Source: Naegleria gruberi
Lineage: Eukaryota
Length of the DNA stretch: 64,000 nt
Assembly (NCBI GenBank): GCA_000004985.1
Contig: GG738907.1
Strand: one strand, 5' to 3'
The notes beneath the pieces are model-generated. The model made no database searches, was not told where the DNA came from, and saw only the letters and a program-made list of their open reading frames with translations. This document shows, one piece after another, positions 2,792-13,567 of this stretch; positions within the stretch are counted from its first letter, which is position 1, and each line of letters begins with the position of its first letter. Position numbers and translations under genes: made by a program.

Positions 2792-4591
2792 TTAAGGTTT
2801 TGGGTCTTCAGGTTCATCTCTTGCTTTTGTATTGTCTCTTGTTTGAAGAGTATCTTCATCTTCTTCAATGATTACAATTTCCTCCTCATTGGAAAGGATA
2901 ATTCTTTGAGAGTTATTTTCTTGTGAAATTTGCAATTCCTGCTGGGTAGCCTCTTCTTCTTGTTTAAGTACTATTCTAACTGATTCTGGTTCTGTAGATG
3001 TACTAGATTTAGGGTCTGCTGGTTCTGTTTGAACAAGTAAAAGAGGATCTGGTTTTGTGACCACATCAGGAGAGATCTTTCCCAAAATTTTTTGCCATTC
3101 ATCATGCCACGATCTATAGGATCTGATCTTTTTCAAATCGTCAACAGGTCTTTTAAAGTAGAGACTGTCTACAAGCTTCGAGTGGTCCGCCTTCTTCTTT
3201 CCCTTATCTGTTAAATGGTTAAGAACTTGAATAAATCCATCCCGATAGATTTTTGTTCTCTTCCTCCAAATCATCTTGAAAATAAAGTCTGAATTGAGTG
3301 GTAAACCTAAATCAAAATAGGTCATTTGGCAATATCTAGTTTTACCTTCATGAGTTCTAGTAAAGATGTGATAGAACAAGCCAGGAGCTTCTACATAGTT
3401 TTCTGTTTTCTTATTTTCCTCTTCTGATAGATATTTTGATGTAATAGATGGGTCCACAGATTTACCAACATTAATAAATGCATCCAAACCATCATCCCAG
3501 ACAGTACAGTAAATGTAATCATAAACTCTCTTTTTCAGCAAAGGCATAGACAAGTCAATAACTGTTCTTCCATAAGTTTTTCCAAAATAGTTACTACCAT
3601 CTTCTTGCACTTGTGGTGATGGTGGTGTATAATGTACAAAAGTATTTTCACTGAACGACAGAGGATCATAAATTTTGTGGAAATCTCCATGCCAAAACAT
3701 TGCCCAACAATCTTCAAGTGCATAAGGGAGAAGCATTACTGTCTTTGCTAATTTCATTCCCTTCATTTTCTGTGGATCGAAAGAATAAGTCTCTTTCGAA
3801 AGATAGCATTGTGTATTGTTTTCATCAAAAAAAAGTTCCCAATCAGGTGTATCCTCTGCTAGTGTGAAACCAAAGTAAATATCACTGTCTGTTACCACAT
3901 CCTTCCTCAAATCTTGAGGCTTAAATCTCAAATCTACTTTATACCCTTTAGAAATATCAAAGGCCATTTGCCTCATAAACTGTTCTCCCTTTCTCTTAAA
4001 GAAAGTTTTACAAGCGTTTGAACGAACAAATCTTGGAAATTGGTCCATCTTTAAATCCAAATGAACCTTTTCAATAACATCACGGAATAAATTAACAGGA
4101 TGTAACCTTGTTATCAAATCTGAAAGAGCTTGTAAATCTTCAACCTCCTCAGATTTTCCAATTAGATTTTCAAACTGTTTGTGAATACTCTCCCAATTCG
4201 CCAAGATTTTTGCCTTATTCCATCCCAAATTGAGTTGGTAGCTTGAGTTTGGTTTTAAAAAGTGATCATATATCGCACCTGCTGAATGTTTAAGCTTTGT
4301 CAAGTCTGAAATAACTCGGGAGAGATTAGAATGTGAATTTGAGCTAGTGGTAGGAATGGTGGTACTTGCGACACATACTACACCACCTAAGGTACCCAGA
4401 GTAGATCTAATCAGAGGAGCCAGACATCCAGTTTGATCTCTCCTAGTAGTAGTGGAGGTGTTACTGTTAGCAATATTGTTTGGAGTTGTGTTTTGTATGT
4501 TTGGCTTTGAGCTTGGTGAGGCTGGAGAAGTTACCATTTCAGCTGGGTGTTGTGTAGTGTCGCTTGTGAGAACCATTTGTGGGAGTGTCAT
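2792..4591 (-). CDS. RGS-domain protein, C-terminal ~600 aa (probably the same gene as 4633..5325)
   Basis: 599-aa ORF. Its reading frame stays open upstream to ~4714, overlapping the RGS-bearing ORF in another frame, which points to a single gene with one frameshift in the poly-N/T-coding repeat. Confidence 0.7.
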   Translation of the reverse strand: MTLPQMVLTSDTTQHPAEMVTSPASPSSKPNIQNTTPNNIANSNTSTTTRRDQTGCLAPLIRSTLGTLGGVVCVASTTIPTTSSNSHSNLSRVISDLTKLKHSAGAIYDHFLKPNSSYQLNLGWNKAKILANWESIHKQFENLIGKSEEVEDLQALSDLITRLHPVNLFRDVIEKVHLDLKMDQFPRFVRSNACKTFFKRKGEQFMRQMAFDISKGYKVDLRFKPQDLRKDVVTDSDIYFGFTLAEDTPDWELFFDENNTQCYLSKETYSFDPQKMKGMKLAKTVMLLPYALEDCWAMFWHGDFHKIYDPLSFSENTFVHYTPPSPQVQEDGSNYFGKTYGRTVIDLSMPLLKKRVYDYIYCTVWDDGLDAFINVGKSVDPSITSKYLSEEENKKTENYVEAPGLFYHIFTRTHEGKTRYCQMTYFDLGLPLNSDFIFKMIWRKRTKIYRDGFIQVLNHLTDKGKKKADHSKLVDSLYFKRPVDDLKKIRSYRSWHDEWQKILGKISPDVVTKPDPLLLVQTEPADPKSSTSTEPESVRIVLKQEEEATQQELQISQENNSQRIILSNEEEIVIIEEDEDTLQTRDNTKARDEPEDPKP

Positions 4592-4632
4592 GGTGTTATT
4601 ATCATTCGCGATAATAATACCTGTATTGGCAA

Positions 4633-5325
4633 TTATTGTTGTATTGTTATTAGTGTTAGCATTTGCAGTGATTGTAGTGGCATTATTATTATTATTGTTA
4701 TTTGTTGAATAGTGGTGCTAGCACTCGTTGCCCCACTAGTGGTGATAGATACATTGTCAGCAATAGTACCAATTTGACTGCTGGTGGTGTTAACACTGCT
4801 TGATAGGGATGATGGTTGTTGTTGATTGGTAGGTGTGGATGAATTATTATTCTGAATATTATTATTATTGCTCGTACTGCTATTGGATGAGGTAGTTGTC
4901 GTTGTTGCTGTGGAGGGATTAGTAGAGGAAGTAGAAGTAGAATTTCCAGAAGAAAAGACCGCTTGAAACTCCTTTCTACTATGCATGCTCTGATAACTGG
5001 CAACATATTCATCGGTCATCTTTAAAAACTCAAAAGGTTCTTCACTACATTCTCCTGATTGTACTTTGCGGAAAAGGCTTCTAAATTCTGGGTTTTTGAT
5101 TGCCTCTTCATAAATAATTTCATAATTATCAGGATGAAAAGCCTTTTTGTTTGAATTAGTTGGAACTGATGGAACAACAGTAACAACATCCGATTCAGTC
5201 ATGGTATCTGTGTGTGCAGTTGTATCATTTTGAACACCATCACTTTCTGATGAAGTATTGGTGCTCGAGAAGGTATTCAAACTATCATCGGACATGAATG
5301 TGTGATTAGATGTTATTGTTGACAA
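4633..5325 (-). CDS. RGS-domain protein, N-terminal part
   Basis: 230-aa ORF with an RGS-like block (EAIKNPEFRSLFRKVQSGECSEEPFEFLKMTDEY). It sits in a different frame from 2792..4591. Confidence 0.65.
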   Translation of the reverse strand: MSTITSNHTFMSDDSLNTFSSTNTSSESDGVQNDTTAHTDTMTESDVVTVVPSVPTNSNKKAFHPDNYEIIYEEAIKNPEFRSLFRKVQSGECSEEPFEFLKMTDEYVASYQSMHSRKEFQAVFSSGNSTSTSSTNPSTATTTTTSSNSSTSNNNNIQNNNSSTPTNQQQPSSLSSSVNTTSSQIGTIADNVSITTSGATSASTTIQQITIIIIMPLQSLQMLTLITIQQ

Positions 5326-6800
5326 GTATTTTTTTGTGAATTTTTAAAGAGCCATCCTGTTGAAGTGGACATGATGAACGCATTAACGAATATGAATTCT
5401 TCATCATCATGTTTTGTTATTTATACTATGTTCATTACTAGTTGATGATGATGAAAATAAGCATGTGGAAATTCAATGAGCAAATTGTGTGTAAATTCCC
5501 AACGTCCGATTATTGAATAAAAATATTTTTGCCAATTAATTTTTACATCTCCACTAATTTGTGAAAATTTTCATTTTCAACATCTTTGGTAATAGTGTTG
5601 TTGATGTGAAGACATACGCAATTTTAGTTGCACAACAATAATGTAGGGAACACATGTGAATGTTCAACAACATATGAATGTGAATGATGGATGTAAAATT
5701 ACAGGTCAATAATATGATGAAGAGTTTCAATGAATATGCACATGGCACATGCAATTTTCAATGTTTGATGTAGAAAATAGTAGATGTACATGTGCAAGTC
5801 ATCTATCTAGCATTCACAAACACTACATTGTGTATGCCCAATTCTGATTTTCAAAGATTACATGTTGCACTTGTTGATGTTTGTTGGTGGTGAGCTTTGC
5901 AATTTTTGTTTCTGTTGATTATGGAGAAGATACAACAACGTTTGACGTTGTTGATTGGTCACTAGCTGTACTGTTATTTCTTCTTGGTGTTGTTGTATTT
6001 GTTTTCTATCCAAAAAAGGTAAAGTAAGGAACCCTCGTTAAATTTCAACAAACTTGTTCATCAAACATTTGATGCAGGCTGCTGCTGTTCATGGTTGTAT
6101 ACTTCCCTTTTTTCAACCATTCCTAAAGGTAATGTTCATAATTGGATACTCCTTAATTCAGATGAATTGTAGAAAAGCTTTACACATGCTGTGGAGTTGT
6201 TGAACTTTGTTGGGAAGAGACGAAACTTTGTGTGAATTTTTTTAAGGACGACAATTTCGTTTGTTTTGATGAGGTTTACTTGTGTGTTGTGTTATTTTGT
6301 TTGGTTGTTGTTGAGGTGTGGTGCGAAATTTATGGCCCATATTACACAATGCACATTAAAAGCAACTGCTGCTTTAATAACATCACACAAATAGATTGAA
6401 GATGACAACAACACTGTACTCAACGACAAATAGGCACAATACAACTCTATCCAAACAGTTTTAATGTGATATCAAGATGCTTCCGTACACATGATGATCA
6501 AGGTTCTTGTTTGTAGAAAATGTACATTTAAAGAAAATGTATATCTCTTCAATTGTAATGTGTGGTCTCACTTTAAATAGAAGCCATATCAATATGCGAT
6601 TTCTCGATACAATTAATATACAACCATGAGGAGAGATTCATTCATATTATACAAGGGTTTTATATTATCAATCTCCTCAGCTATAGATGATTGAGGAGGA
6701 GTTTTATTATAGTGAAGAGATTGAATCACAAAGCTCTTTTAAATTGATTTGTTCCTTATCTATTAGAGAAGAATATCGCCCTTAATCCAAGCAACAGTCA

Positions 6801-8781: not shown

Positions 8782-9834
8782 TTATTTACTTGATGGATCA
8801 TTAATACCATCATTATAAATACCAAAGTTGCATTCACCTTCGGGCAGTGATGGAGAATCATAAATCTTACAAACTCTTTCTTCACCTTTACCTTTTCTTA
8901 AGAATAAACGAGTTGTTGCCATGTGAGCCATAATGTGACCACCAATTGGTTTCATTTGAACTGCACCTGCAAAAGTAGCACCATCAACAGTAGCAACTAC
9001 TTGATTTGTAACAACTACAGCAACATGGAATTCATCAGCAAGTTTCAATAAACTCTTTAAGAAAGCAGAAAGTCTAATTTGTCTAGCATTCAATTCACCA
9101 CGTCCAGAAAATTCAGAACGATATAAACCAGTAACACTGTCAACAATAATAACTGCATAGTGACTTTCTGAAAGTAATTTTGGAGCTTCACTCAATAATT
9201 TTTCTTGGTGATCACTTGAATAAGCTCTAGCAAATGTAACATTATCTAAAACTTCGGAATATTTAAGACCAAAACGATCTGCAATTGGTTCTAAACGTTC
9301 AGGACGGAAAGTACCTTCTGTATCAATATAAAGTGCTTTACCTTCACCACCACCACTTTCAAGAGGTAATTGACAAGTTACACAAAGTGTATGACAAATT
9401 TGTGTTTTACCAGTTCTAAATTCACCAAACATTTCTGTTAATGAATTTGATTCAATACCTCCACCTAATAATTTATCTAATTCCTTTGATCCTGTTGAAA
9501 CTTTGATTACTTTCTTTCTAACTTCTTGATATTGTGTTGCTGATGAAAATCCTGATGGAAAAAGTTTTTGTGCTGCTTCTATAATTTTATCAGCTTTTTG
9601 TTCACTGATACCTTTAACATTGATAATAACTTTCTTTGGAGTCATGATGAGTGATTGAACAGTATGGAAATTACCTGCTACAAGTTTTTTAACGTCAGTA
9701 GCAGAAATACCATGGTTTTCTAATTCTTGAATAGGAATAAAAGATTCTCCTACTTCTACAGCTTCGGATGTTTCTTCAGCAACTTCTTCTTCTTCTTCAA
9801 CTTCTTCTACGACTTTAGATTTGGCTCTTGGCAT
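8782..9834 (-). CDS. rad51: DNA repair/recombination protein Rad51 (RecA family)
   Basis: 350-aa single ORF with Walker A (GEFRTGKTQ), Walker B (AVIIVDS) and C-terminal blocks typical of Rad51, plus an acidic N-terminal extension. Confidence 0.93.
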
Positions 9835-10188
9835 TTTGATGAATAAATTTGCTTAGGGTTTTTGTACAATTAGTTGTTTTGATTATTTTTTAGCTTGTTG
9901 TTTTCTGATGATGAAAAGTTCCAGCGTATTTTATTTAAAAATGCGCAGCAAGTTAATTTCTTGTGAAAATTGGAAGAGAGTAAAAACTGGAACTTGAGAA
10001 TCAAAAACCGCCAAAACAAAAAATACATGATAAAGTAGAAGAAGAAACAAATTGAATTTAATAAGAGGGATATGTGATAATATACTTTGAGATGGTTATT
10101 GGTTGGATTGAATTTAAAATGATATCAAAAAATGCAAAGACATCATCAACAGCTTGTTGATTCAGAAGTAAAATCATCAACAGCAGTG

Positions 10189-10255
10189 ATGAAGCCTTCT
10201 CTTTTATCGGAGCATGTTAGAACATCTTCTTCAACAAGAAATGATTATATTGATA
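10189..10255 (+). CDS. divergent TCP-1/CCT-like group II chaperonin paralog, exon 1
   Basis: ATG followed by a GTATGT donor at 10256. The spliced product continues RNDYIDN|IQACIDVGEKLKSLLGPKALENLIVD, which resembles the CCT N-terminus. Confidence 0.6.
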
Positions 10256-10309
10256 GTATGTTTTCAATGATGATAGAGGAATAATAGAAAATTATTATCC
10301 ATTAAATAG

Positions 10310-10446
10310 ATATTCAAGCCTGTATTGATGTTGGAGAAAAATTGAAAAGTCTTCTTGGTCCTAAAGCTTTGGAAAATTTAATTGTGGATAGGGAGAGTGG
10401 AGAAATAATTATTACTAATGATGGTGCAACAGCTATTGAATATATG
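10310..10446 (+). CDS. CCT-like chaperonin, exon 2
   Basis: Bounded by acceptor AAATAG and donor GTAAGG. It encodes LGPKALENLIVDRESGEIIITNDGATAIEYM, matching the CCT equatorial-domain motif LGPKG...TNDGATIL. Confidence 0.7.
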
Positions 10447-10492
10447 GTAAGGATTAAAGTTCGAATTGCTATTATAATTTATGGATTCATAG

Positions 10493-10596
10493 AAATTTAA
10501 TAATCCTCTTGCACAATTATTTATTGAATTGAGTCAATCAGTGGATGATCAGATAGGTGATGGTACTACATCTGTGGTTGTATTGGCGTCTTCAAT
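10493..10596 (+). CDS. CCT-like chaperonin, exon 3
   Basis: Encodes KFNNPLAQLFIELSQSVDDQIGDGTTSVVVLASS, containing the GDGTTSVV ATP-binding motif. A GTATGT donor follows. Confidence 0.7.
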
Positions 10597-10636
10597 GTAT
10601 GTTGTAAAATTGTTGATTGGATTCTAATGATAATAG

Positions 10637-10796
10637 GTTGGAGCAATCTTTGAAACTCATTAGAGAAGGTGTTCATCCAATGAAAATTGTGAAATACTAT
10701 TCGATTTTTAATGACATTATTGAAAAACATTTGACTGAATATCAAGCATTAAAATTAGAATTGAACAATGAATCCAGTAAATCATATATAACACAG
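10637..10796 (+). CDS. CCT-like chaperonin, exon 4
   Basis: Encodes LEQSLKLIREGVHPMKIV..., matching the CCT GIHP block. A GTAAAT donor follows. Confidence 0.65.
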
Positions 10797-10842
10797 GTAA
10801 ATATTTCAATAATTTTGGATATTAATATATTGGATGACAAAG

Positions 10843-12117
10843 CTGGTCAAGACTACATTAAATTCTAAATTTTCTAGCACTTCGATTCCAAATCTATCCC
10901 ATATTGCTGTGGATTCAATGTATATAACAAAGGGAGAACGAAGATTTATCAAAATTATTAAGAGTGGAAAAGCAGAAAACTCTATAACTTTCAGAGGATC
11001 AAGTACGAATGAAACAAAAATTATATCTAATGAAATAATTGTAAATACCAATTTTATACACGAGAATATGAAGGAAAATGTAAATTTAAAGAATCAAAAA
11101 TTAGCACTTGTACTATTTGAGCTTGATAAGCCAAAAGCTCACAAGTCAAGGTTGGATGACATCAACTCTATTGATAATTCCCAAATTGATAGACTTATCA
11201 AAGAGGAAGAATCATATATTAAGAAAATAGTTGTTCAACTGAAAAAGCTAGGAGTAGGCTTGATTTGTGTTCAAGAAAATCTCTCTGCAGGGTTTCATGC
11301 AGGCGTTTCGGATACAGCAAAATTTTGGCTCCAAAAATCAAAAATCAATTGTATGATACCCATCTCAAAAGATGAAATGAATTTAATTGCAGATGCATTT
11401 CAGTTACATGCCATATCATCTATTGATCAGCTCAGTAATTTGGTAGAAAGTGGAACCACAGAAGAAAAAGGTAAATTTGTTCAATCAATAGAATATGTGA
11501 AGCATCTTAGTATTGGAAGACAATCATTTATATCGTTTGGACAAACCGCAGAACAATACCAAAATTATCCATGTGCAACTATTGTACTGAGTGCTCCAAC
11601 TCAAGTGGCTGTAGATGAGGTAGAGAGAGCACTACATGATGCACTTAGAGTAGTGGAAGTTTGTTTCAAACATCCTTCACTTGTACCTGGAGGTGGTGCA
11701 TGTGAAATGTCACTCTCGGCCTACATTCATTGTAATTTTCTTAATAGTACCACAAATAGTAATAAGTGCTCTCCCTTAGAAAAACTGATAATGGCTAGTT
11801 TTTCTAATGCTATTGAGGAAGTACCTCACATACTCAGTCAAGGATGTCAAAATCATGTTCCATCAGCACTTTTGAATGAATTGAGACATATTTATACAGA
11901 GTCAATATATCACAACCAACCAAGCCCAAATGTTGGCATCTATCTAAGCAATCAACAAGAGGAAACCCTTCACCCCATCCAAGACATGAAAGAACGGAAA
12001 GTTTTCGAATTACTTCACAGCAAAATCTCACAAATGAAAATGGCTCTGCAAACAGTTCAACGAATCCTCAAGATTAGAAAAGTTTTCATTTCCACTCCTC
12101 CAACCACTAATAAATAA
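10843..12117 (+). CDS. CCT-like chaperonin, exon 5 (to stop)
   Basis: Contains the chaperonin VPGGGACE motif. Exon phases are consistent across four introns of 40-54 nt. Confidence 0.7.
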   Translation: MVKTTLNSKFSSTSIPNLSHIAVDSMYITKGERRFIKIIKSGKAENSITFRGSSTNETKIISNEIIVNTNFIHENMKENVNLKNQKLALVLFELDKPKAHKSRLDDINSIDNSQIDRLIKEEESYIKKIVVQLKKLGVGLICVQENLSAGFHAGVSDTAKFWLQKSKINCMIPISKDEMNLIADAFQLHAISSIDQLSNLVESGTTEEKGKFVQSIEYVKHLSIGRQSFISFGQTAEQYQNYPCATIVLSAPTQVAVDEVERALHDALRVVEVCFKHPSLVPGGGACEMSLSAYIHCNFLNSTTNSNKCSPLEKLIMASFSNAIEEVPHILSQGCQNHVPSALLNELRHIYTESIYHNQPSPNVGIYLSNQQEETLHPIQDMKERKVFELLHSKISQMKMALQTVQRILKIRKVFISTPPTTNK

Positions 12118-12724: not shown

Positions 12725-13290
12725 TTACTCAAATCGATGGTCATAAATTAAAGTTCTAATAGAGTGAGGAGGAATAACCATTTCTGCAGCATAATCAATG
12801 CCAATACTCATATCAATCAATTTGAAAATTTGGCTTGTTTGTTCTTGATTCATGACAATAACAACCATCTTATTTTCTGGTGTGATAAAGCTGGTAACAA
12901 GTAAGGTATCGAGGGTATTTTCATGAGCAATTCTTACAGAACCTTCAGTCAAATACTTTGAAAAGTGACCCATGTAGTAATACATTGGTTGCAAATAGAT
13001 GGATTGAGTCTTATTGTTGGCAACAATGGCAGCATCACACCAATTTTGCATATGAGTTGGTCCACCAATTGGATCGAGAATGCAATTCCAATCAGTCCAA
13101 CCTTGAGCATAATTTTCCAAATCATTAATAATGTCAAATCCATAACTTTCACCTCTTCCCCAATCTCCAAAAGCAACACGGGGTCCTTGAGTTGCCTCAG
13201 TGCCAAGCAGAATCTTTTCAGGAGCAATATCATGGGCCATTGTCAAGTGTTCATATTGTCCATTGACATACCAGTGGAATGCAGTTCCAG
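12725..13290 (-). CDS. GH30 glucosylceramidase, exon 3 (to stop)
   Basis: Encodes GTAFHWYV...GWTDWNCILDPIGGP (GBA: IAVHWYLD...GWTDWNLALNPEGGP). Acceptor is GAAACAG. Confidence 0.75.
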
Positions 13291-13364
13291 CTGTTTCAAT
13301 AATGAGAAAAATTGTAAAACAATTATTTATATTAAGAGAAATTGAATAGAACATAACTACATAC

Positions 13365-13567
13365 CAACATATTTAGATGCTTCCTTATCAGCATAAATAA
13401 TCTCAGCCCACAAATGAACATGATCTCTATTGTGGTCATATATTAAAATGTTAACTTCTGGATGGTCCTGCTTAATTCTTGGTCCAAGATGTCTCTTAAT
13501 AAAATCTCTTTGGAATTCCGCAGTATAAACACAACTGTTATCCATTGAGAATATATTCCAATAAAAA
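13365..13567 (-). CDS. GH30 glucosylceramidase, exon 2
   Basis: Encodes YTAEFQRDFIKRHLGP (GBA: FTPEHQRDFIARDLGP). Bounded by acceptor TTTGAAG and donor GTATGT; the phases fit. Confidence 0.7.

Follow-up and report, generated by a model that had tools for sequence, protein, structure and literature searches.

The TRiC/CCT chaperonin is usually regarded as a machine whose eight subunits form a fixed set, inherited from the last eukaryotic common ancestor. To our knowledge, the extra CCT paralogues recognised so far are few, i.e. CCT6B, CCT8L and the ATPase-degenerate proteins BBS6, BBS10 and BBS12 of animals. An orphan chaperonin of Dictyostelium discoideum, DDB_G0268902, belongs to no CCT family, finds its best BLAST matches outside Dictyostelia among thermosomes and was grouped with animal BBS12 as its sister, with caution urged (Ewerling et al. 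2023, PMC10074162). All canonical CCT families are reported to be present in Dictyostelium besides this protein (PMC10074162), and Dictyostelium is the only organism for which the literature documents a full canonical set alongside a protein of the kind described here. The gene investigated in this study is located in a window of 64,000 nucleotides from Naegleria gruberi (assembly GCA_000004985.1, contig GG738907.1). It is assigned to an unnamed group of chaperonins which is catalytically intact as judged by its motifs, probably delta-derived, and spread over three deep eukaryotic lineages.

Joining of exons 10189-10255, 10310-10446, 10493-10596, 10637-10796 and 10843-12117 yielded an ORF of 1743 nt, encoding 580 aa plus a stop codon. 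The splicing and the four introns of 40-54 nt predicted in the initial annotation, all of the form GT...AG, were confirmed by comparison with the orthologue of N. lovaniensis (59% identity). The splice model is independently supported because this orthologue also has four introns at matching codon positions and phases, and exons 2-4 measure 137, 104 and 160 nt in both species; the protein alignment is free of gaps over all four splice junctions. The predicted start codon had to be corrected. The ATG at 10189 is preceded by another in the same frame at 10132; this first one, used in the NCBI model, is the likelier translation start, since N. lovaniensis carries a His at the position of N. gruberi Met20 and the similarity extends upstream of Met20. 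The spliced product is identical (100%, full length) to the NCBI/UniRef entry 'predicted protein [Naegleria gruberi]' (P0001, 599 aa). Homologues from Vermamoeba, Gefionella and Ceratiomyxa derive from transcriptome assemblies, and the locus is by all these signs a real, spliced gene. The coordinates of all features are listed in the table. The intergenic region towards the Rad51 gene presumably contains the promoters of both divergently transcribed genes. That Rad51 adjoins the chaperonin gene had been noted before and is correct, but in N. lovaniensis the upstream neighbour of the orthologue is a DUF747 gene; as the adjacency is not conserved there, it was dropped as a functional clue.

Table. 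Features of the chaperonin locus of N. gruberi; positions refer to the 64,000-nucleotide window.
Feature	Position	Strand	Remarks
Rad51 gene	8782-9834	-	PF08423, E=6e-121; head to head with the chaperonin gene
Intergenic region Rad51/chaperonin	9835-10131		297 bp, 27% G+C
Whole chaperonin gene	10132-12117	+	5 exons and 4 introns, start to stop codon, 599 aa
Intron 1	10256-10309	+	54 nt, GTATGT...TAG, phase 1; in-frame stop inside; same position and phase in N. lovaniensis
Equatorial stem-loop region LLGPKALENL ... ITNDGATAI	10351-10437	+	aa 56-84; includes the nucleotide-binding NDG aspartate
Intron 2	10447-10492	+	46 nt, GTAAGG...TAG, phase 0; equivalent in N. lovaniensis
Phosphate-binding loop GDGTTSVV	10556-10579	+	aa 109-116
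Intron 3	10597-10636	+	40 nt, GTATGT...TAG, phase 2; equivalent in N. lovaniensis
Intron 4	10797-10842	+	46 nt, GTAAAT...AAG, phase 0; equivalent in N. lovaniensis
Nucleotide-sensing loop TTLNSK	10852-10869	+	aa 179-184; Lys184 invariant
Apical built-in lid (helical protrusion) and next helix, LDKPK...QIDRLIKEEESYIKKIVVQLKKLG	11122-11253	+	aa 269-312
Segment with the CCT4-type insertion, GVGLICVQENLSAGFHAGVSD	11251-11313	+	21 aa in N. gruberi; directly before helix H11
Apical helix H11, SDTAKFWLQKSKI	11308-11346	+	aa 331-343; clade-specific residues
VERALHDALRVV (catalytic Asp441) and VPGGGACE	11620-11706	+	aa 435-463

Residues 33-570 of the protein matched Pfam PF00118 at full length (profile positions 4-485 of 490; E=8.3e-86; 289 bits, cut-off 34). 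The scores against the CCT1-8 models (equivalogs TIGR02340-02347) all remained below the cut-offs, given here in parentheses: epsilon 231 bits (710), delta 213 (695; TIGR02342), alpha 208 (800), gamma 196 (553), eta 191 (669), theta 169 (456), beta 147 (522) and zeta 120 (587). The delta and epsilon proteins used as controls (P0027, P0051) exceeded the cut-offs of their own models; the delta protein of Cryptosporidium reached 716 bits with the delta model. None of the thermosome models was passed either (NF041082, 235 bits, cut-off 450; TIGR02339, 233, cut-off 671; NF041083, 220, cut-off 400). The best PDB match was CCT epsilon with 170 bits. Identity to human CCT4 and to human CCT5 was 28%; canonical CCT4 proteins of fungi, plants and apicomplexans are 56-67% identical to human CCT4. 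The highly divergent TCP-1/CCT-family paralogue that the initial annotation had proposed was thus borne out by the full-length match and by scores below all CCT-model cut-offs, and no canonical CCT subunit aligned end to end at high identity. On these sequence criteria the protein is a highly divergent paralogue within the group II chaperonins (TCP-1/CCT family) and none of the eight canonical CCT subunits. An AF2 model (pLDDT 81, pTM 0.79) predicted the equatorial-intermediate-apical fold with a built-in helical lid. With Foldseek, it came closest to chains of human CCT5/CCT4, yeast CCT and archaeal chaperonins in the closed state (TM scores of 0.69-0.85 over approximately 560 columns). The reference sequences used throughout (human CCT1-8, MKKS, BBS10 and BBS12; yeast CCT3, CCT6 and CCT8) were each validated as exact matches to entries of the PDB or of the protein collection.

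Approximately 16 full-length relatives form one group with the N. gruberi protein, here named clade X. It comprises Heterolobosea (Naegleria, Willaertia, Acrasis), Amoebozoa (seven dictyostelids, Vermamoeba and, as a partial sequence, Ceratiomyxa) and the malawimonad flagellate Gefionella; the earlier suggestion of a lineage-specific gene is not supported by this distribution. When 1.84 billion cluster representatives were searched exhaustively with a profile, only about a dozen clusters of the clade X type rose above the canonical background. The top non-clade match of this profile, P0273 (570 bits), at first resembled a distinct relative from archaea, but it consists of two thermosome units in tandem whose scores add up. 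Members of clade X are inconsistently named in databases, e.g. as 'predicted protein', 'CCT-eta', 'TCPD' or 'Coatamer protein'.

All hallmark motifs quoted in the initial annotation were found in the translation, and the same elements are preserved across clade X. GDGTTS, NDG, the sensor Lys, the catalytic Asp of 'HDA' and GGGxxE are all kept, invariant or nearly so; every member covering the region retains GDGTTSV, which is degenerate in MKKS, BBS10 and BBS12. Residues E434, R437, D441, G458, G459 and E463 are invariant in the clade X alignment. Every residue class for ATP binding and hydrolysis is, as far as motifs can tell, present in the clade. The LNSK form of the sensing loop occurs in most clade X members and in several canonical CCT4 proteins (LSSK in the other CCT4) and is absent in the other subunits shown. 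The most strongly conserved clade X-specific stretch is the lid with the following helix (aa 269-312), modelled as a loop at 266-286 and a helix at 287-310; the aligned lid segment is about as long as in CCT4. Clade-specific residues are also found in H11, the main substrate-contact helix in group II chaperonins according to work on TRiC. Directly before H11, a segment of 16-22 aa is present in 16/16 clade X members and one of 18 aa in 14/14 CCT4 proteins; its length is 13 aa in all thermosomes, in CCT1, 2, 3, 5, 7 and 8 and in the three BBS proteins. That the locus is a pseudogene in decay, or a thermosome gene taken up recently from archaea, is barely credible given these data. The thermosome models do score about as high as the CCT models, but even the best of them falls well short of its cut-off. 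This reading is already contradicted by the catalytic residues that are invariant across distant taxa, by the intact ORF, by spliceosomal introns kept at their positions in two species, and by the eukaryotic, delta-type insertion.

Distance-based NJ trees, in which branches were long, placed clade X as sister to CCT4, with bootstrap support of 87-92% without the BBS proteins and 42-57% with them. Clade X branched outside the CCT4 clade, which was itself monophyletic in 74-100% of bootstraps. With hhalign, CCT4 ranked first for the whole of clade X as well as for each subgroup alone. It is highly unlikely that the gene is nothing more than Naegleria's own canonical CCT4 in an unusually diverged form, with no extra gene involved. 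The sister position would be compatible with this, as would the name 'TCPD' of the Acrasis member, and no canonical Naegleria CCT4 was found in the literature on Naegleria CCT subunits. The delta model is, however, missed by a wide margin, while the Cryptosporidium protein passes it, and sequences just 34-41% identical to human CCT4 still group within the CCT4 clade, whereas clade X does not. Even eukaryotes that are highly reduced keep, as far as is known, the full set of eight canonical subunits, which likewise counts against a single diverged CCT4. The complete canonical set reported for Dictyostelium in addition to its orphan chaperonin (PMC10074162) points in the same direction.

Clade X was monophyletic in 82-100% of NJ bootstraps. 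An origin from independent CCT4 duplications in Heterolobosea and Amoebozoa, followed by fast divergence, would make the clade a long-branch artefact; we regard this as unlikely, with evidence on both sides. Identity across supergroups inside clade X (30-32%) is no higher than that to CCT4 (28-30%), and each subgroup alone is closest to CCT4. A dictyostelid query scored Naegleria with 209 bits, no higher than canonical delta and epsilon matches (196-230 bits), because of which long-branch attraction between independently diverged copies has to be considered; with an amoebozoan-only profile, human CCT4 and N. gruberi scored nearly alike (389 and 379 bits, respectively). This corresponds to a ratio of N. 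gruberi to human CCT4 of 0.97, but the ratio was only 0.50-0.59 on CCT1, CCT5, CCT7 and thermosome profiles. The N. gruberi query, for its part, ranked the dictyostelids (193-210 bits) above every canonical subunit (≤175 bits), and a heterolobosean-only profile gave amoebozoan members 300-360 bits vs 274 for human CCT4. At columns with a clear ancestral state, Heterolobosea and dictyostelids were both derived in nine cases (2.5 expected by chance), with the same residue in 6/9; a strict count of exact-residue synapomorphies gave four columns vs one in the control, too few to be informative. Several changes are shared throughout the clade, which also argues against separate origins. All members shown have a hydrophobic residue before LGP in the stem-loop, M, V or I for the conserved Q of 'xQD', and A for S in ER[SA], where thermosomes carry A or S. 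Those covering the site after LGPK have Ser or Ala in place of the Gly found in canonical subunits other than CCT3.

A relationship to the BBS chaperonins, the second suggestion of the initial annotation ('BBS/MKKS-like'), found no support. In its explicit form, this would be a BBS12/BBS6-like protein aiding BBSome assembly in the flagellate stage of Naegleria, which we judge to be very improbable. Naegleria forms flagella, the Dictyostelium protein was placed with animal BBS12 (PMC10074162), and 17-19% of bootstraps had BBS proteins as the group closest to clade X; but the rise in support for the CCT4 pairing once the long BBS branches were removed is the behaviour expected from long-branch attraction. 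The clade X profile, compared with human BBS sequences only, gave 69 bits for MKKS, 69 for BBS10 and 24 for BBS12, none above the score of the same protein with CCT4, CCT5 or thermosome profiles (26-34 bits in the case of BBS12), and BBS proteins were absent among the top 150 matches. MKKS, BBS10 and BBS12 also lack the CCT4-type insertion. As clade X keeps ATP-site residues that the BBS proteins have lost, the proposed likeness is not supported, and the N. gruberi product does not appear to be an ATPase-dead assembly factor of the BBS type.

The best explanation, which we consider probable, is that the gene codes for an additional subunit of the group II chaperonins, one that evolves fast, arose from the CCT-delta (CCT4) lineage and belongs to the small, unnamed clade X. 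The protein is most likely an ATP-driven subunit with clients of its own. As with thermosome and CCT subunits, ATP would drive it through open and lid-closed states, within an oligomer in which it might either take or join the delta position of TRiC or form a homo-oligomeric ring of its own. Recombinant human CCT4 and CCT5 are able to form such homo-oligomeric rings. The fast rate of clade X is hard to square with a set place in TRiC, where CCT1 and CCT2 are the neighbours of delta. The apical surface (H11 and the lid helix), diverged yet conserved within the clade, could serve a client set unlike that of canonical CCT4. A more far-reaching interpretation, which we put forward tentatively and consider somewhat unlikely, is that clade X represents a ninth CCT-type paralogue, generated by a delta duplication no later than the last eukaryotic common ancestor, surviving in only a handful of lineages, most of them amoeboid, to either side of the proposed eukaryotic root (Discoba, Amoebozoa, malawimonads) and ATP-active as a homo-oligomeric ring or an alternative TRiC. 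If this were true, the eight-subunit TRiC would be neither universal nor the sole cytosolic group II arrangement in eukaryotes. The clade raises the questions of whether a further chaperonin, or TRiC in a variant form, operates in some eukaryotes, which clients would depend on it and how old the duplication is; Dictyostelium is genetically tractable, so that this can be tested there directly.

Compared with known systems, clade X shares with MKKS/BBS6, BBS10 and BBS12 that all are fast-evolving additional group II members outside the eight canonical subunits. The BBS proteins differ in their degenerate P-loop, NDG and catalytic motifs and in large insertions of their own which are absent in clade X. 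They are tied to cilia, whereas clade X is also present in dictyostelids and Vermamoeba, which have no cilia. The orphan chaperonin DDB_G0268902 is probably a member of clade X: its published description fits the dictyostelid branch, a match by description and not by sequence, and it was not found by name among the matches listed in a homologue search with the D. purpureum member. The BBS12 affinity proposed for it (PMC10074162) is not supported here, which would correct the published proposal of BBS12 orthology for the member from Dictyostelium; that study draws no link to Heterolobosea or malawimonads. Archaeal thermosomes (TIGR02339, NF041082/3) resemble the N. gruberi protein in fold and ATP site and give scores similar to those against CCT4 and CCT5, but the N. 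gruberi gene has spliceosomal introns and an insertion seen otherwise, among the groups compared here, only in CCT4. With CCT4 (TIGR02342), clade X has in common the insertion before H11, the motif forms LNSK, Q[IM]DR[ILV][IL][KR]EE and K.KI, the fold, the lid length and identical ATP-site residues. It differs from CCT4 in evolving much faster, in being confined to few lineages and in branching outside all sampled canonical CCT4 proteins, and short insertions at the surface add about 40 residues to the N. gruberi member.

Joining of the five exons of the chaperonin gene, which lies in an AT-rich window (31-37% G+C), yielded an open frame of 580 codons, and the four introns (54, 46, 40 and 46 nt) were all of the GT...AG type. 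The spliced product was 100% identical to the NCBI/UniRef entry 'predicted protein [Naegleria gruberi]' and contained every motif quoted in the initial annotation. The NCBI model starts further upstream, at an in-frame ATG (10132) that lengthens the protein by 19 residues. Since N. lovaniensis has a histidine at the methionine from which the frame had initially been read (10189), and since similarity extends upstream of it, the ATG at 10132 is probably the true start. In the N. lovaniensis locus (L001), introns were placed by threading the protein through the DNA. The first four of its five introns were located at the same codons and in the same phases as those of N. gruberi, and the two species agreed in the lengths of exons 2-4 (137, 104 and 160 nt), which supports the N. 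gruberi splice model. The fifth intron (53 nt, after codon 407) was absent from N. gruberi, indicating a gain or loss between the two Naegleria species. The Rad51 gene and the chaperonin gene are arranged head to head and transcribed divergently from a spacer of 297 bp (27% G+C). The adjacency to Rad51 noted earlier is thus present in N. gruberi, but it carries no functional weight, because the upstream neighbour in N. lovaniensis is a DUF747 gene.

Coordinates of the chaperonin gene, its neighbours and related loci
Feature	Sequence	Position	Strand	Remarks
Rad51 gene	window	8782-9834	-	single exon, 350 aa; PF08423, E=6e-121; HHH_5 domain at N-terminus
N-terminal extension from upstream ATG	window	10132-10188	+	
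Chaperonin exon 1	window	10189-10255	+	
Chaperonin exon 2	window	10310-10446	+	
Chaperonin exon 3	window	10493-10596	+	
Chaperonin exon 4	window	10637-10796	+	
Chaperonin exon 5	window	10843-12117	+	
Glycoside hydrolase family 30 gene	window	12725-13545	-	glucosylceramidase-like, multi-exon
First ORF of family 30 gene	window	12725-13354	-	matches PF02055 and PF17189
Second ORF of family 30 gene	window	13357-13545	-	upstream of first ORF
Fifth intron, N. lovaniensis orthologue	L001	7460-7512		
P0006, close relative of heterolobosean members	L003 (run SRR25266748)	2848-4794		intronless; compact contig
P0017, canonical CCT4	L002 (run SRR33927573)	4421-6013		intronless; compact contig

The protein matched the Pfam chaperonin family PF00118 from end to end (E=8e-86). 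With the NCBIfam models it scored 120-235 bits on all eight CCT-subunit equivalogs and on the thermosomes, where cut-offs are 400-800, while a delta subunit from Cryptosporidium and an epsilon subunit from a metagenome, taken as controls, exceeded the cut-offs of their own models. It is therefore classed, on its sequence, as a group II chaperonin outside every canonical CCT subunit family, and its reading as a divergent CCT-family paralogue with four short introns was upheld in outline. The best matches among solved structures were CCT epsilon (170 bits), a reconstructed group II ancestor, a thermosome and CCT delta, with scores far below orthologue level. An AlphaFold2 model built with 12 homologues as input (pLDDT 81, pTM 0.79) showed the full three-domain architecture and superposed best on closed-state chains of CCT5, CCT4, other CCT subunits and archaeal chaperonins (TM 0.69-0.85, 21-26% identity).

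A first homologue search yielded orthologues in N. lovaniensis (59% identity), N. fowleri (58%) and Willaertia magna (46%), one further relative at 34%, and 'hypothetical' proteins of 29-33% identity from dictyostelids and EukProt transcriptomes. The latter scored 193-229 bits, whereas all canonical CCT and thermosome matches remained at or below 175. When a 12-sequence profile was run exhaustively against 1.84 billion cluster representatives, just a handful of additional clusters rose above the canonical background. Cluster look-up named Vermamoeba vermiformis, Tieghemostelium lacteum, Cavenderia fasciculata, Acrasis kona, Ceratiomyxa fruticulosa (a partial sequence) and the malawimonad Gefionella okellyi, the least diverged of all, as members of this group, here called clade X. 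The possibility raised earlier, that the gene is lineage-specific, is thus not borne out. Database names within clade X were inconsistent, ranging from 'predicted protein' to 'CCT-eta', 'TCPD' (the Acrasis entry) and 'Coatamer protein'. In Dictyostelium firmibasis (P0014, 761 aa) and C. fasciculata (P0420, 709 aa) the member was annotated as a single protein with an N-terminal Ras/Arf-type small GTPase. The cause may be a merging of gene models at a conserved adjacency or a genuine fusion of the two genes. The Heterostelium member (P0013), merged with ribosomal protein S28e and a mitochondrial carrier, is surely a product of faulty annotation. Intergenic gaps on the contigs of P0006 and P0017 were 35-142 bp. 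The profile search also returned two archaeal tandem fusions with two complete group II chaperonin units per polypeptide, P0273 (1057 aa, MDO8079144.1, Candidatus Freyarchaeota) and P0277 (1047 aa), whose halves were 38% and 29% identical, respectively. Neither half of P0273, from an Asgard archaeon, contained an exact GDGT[TS] or NDG[ANV]T motif. Such a fusion may constitute a covalently linked thermosome dimer.

For the trees, a MAFFT alignment of 82 sequences, 511 columns long after trimming, was analysed with ML distances (Gonnet-derived model, gamma rates), neighbour joining and 100 bootstraps. The references (human CCT1-8, MKKS, BBS10 and BBS12; yeast CCT3/6/8) were validated exactly against PDB or the protein collection. 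With all sequences, clade X (16 sequences) was monophyletic in 86% and canonical CCT4 in 80% of replicates, and the group nearest to clade X was CCT4 alone in 50% and the BBS proteins alone in 17%. After removal of the three very long BBS branches, these values rose to 100% for clade X and 98-100% for CCT4, and the two were joined in 87-92%; these percentages held when the gamma shape was changed and when the most variable 30% of columns were left out. In these trees the protein fell outside canonical CCT4, and CCT4 was the group most often nearest to its clade. The unity of clade X is the weakest point of the analysis. Identity between supergroups within it was 30-32%, no higher than to CCT4, and a dictyostelid query did not prefer Naegleria over canonical subunits, both of which speak for independent origins of the heterolobosean and amoebozoan members. 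Such separate origins are nevertheless unlikely: a heterolobosean-only profile gave amoebozoan members scores higher than that of human CCT4 by 25-90 bits, and the score ratio of N. gruberi to human CCT4 was 0.97 on the amoebozoan profile, compared with only 0.50-0.59 on unrelated profiles. Also, the ancestral state was clear at 77 columns, and both halves had departed from it at 9 of these (2.5 expected by chance), at six with the same residue. In motifs that are otherwise highly conserved, the members had several substitutions in common.

The evidence points to a delta origin. In profile-profile comparison CCT4 was the top match of clade X as a whole and of either half taken by itself. Counted from the conserved glycine ending the long apical helix to the aspartate starting helix H11, the segment comprised 13 residues in 15 thermosomes, all CCT1/2/3/5/7/8, MKKS, BBS10 and BBS12, 18 in canonical CCT4 (14/14) and 16-22 in clade X (16/16); CCT6 has a separate insertion further upstream within that segment. 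The indel shared with CCT4 links clade X with the delta lineage and sets it apart from the BBS proteins. Clade X and CCT4 also had in common the sensor-loop form LNSK, the lid-helix form Q[IM]DR..[KR]EE and, following H11, K.KI, forms absent from the other human subunits in the alignment. Ewerling et al. 2023 (PMC10074162) described the Dictyostelium orphan chaperonin DDB_G0268902 as lying outside all CCT families, with thermosomes as best outside matches, and proposed with caution a sister relationship to animal BBS12. A protein so described is probably clade X's representative in D. discoideum, and its BBS12 affinity is probably a long-branch effect. No paper found in a literature search links it to the proteins of Naegleria, Acrasis, Vermamoeba or Gefionella. 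Human MKKS and BBS10 scored highest on the thermosome or CCT4 profile and not on that of CCT8, their origin proposed in the literature; as the CCT8 profile held only two sequences, this is only a hint.

H11 is the main substrate-contact helix in TRiC, and in clade X its sequence followed a conserved pattern of its own, SDxAKxW. Of the clade-specific stretches, the lid helix (Q[IL]DR[IL][IL]KEEExYxK) was the best conserved. Every member kept GDGTTS and GGGxxE, the aspartate of NDG, the lysine of the sensor loop and, within ERAxHDA, the catalytic aspartate. The protein is most economically read as a chaperonin subunit that is driven by ATP, closes a lid and offers clients a different surface. 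It may replace delta in TRiC, form its own ring or act alone; a fixed hetero-oligomeric slot is somewhat disfavoured, since clade X evolves fast. The initially suggested BBS/MKKS-like identity conflicts both with the 13-residue segment of the BBS proteins and with their loss, seen in the alignment and in reviews, of most of the ATP motifs that clade X retains in full. The clade X lid is about as long as that of CCT4, from which the clade otherwise differs by short surface insertions.
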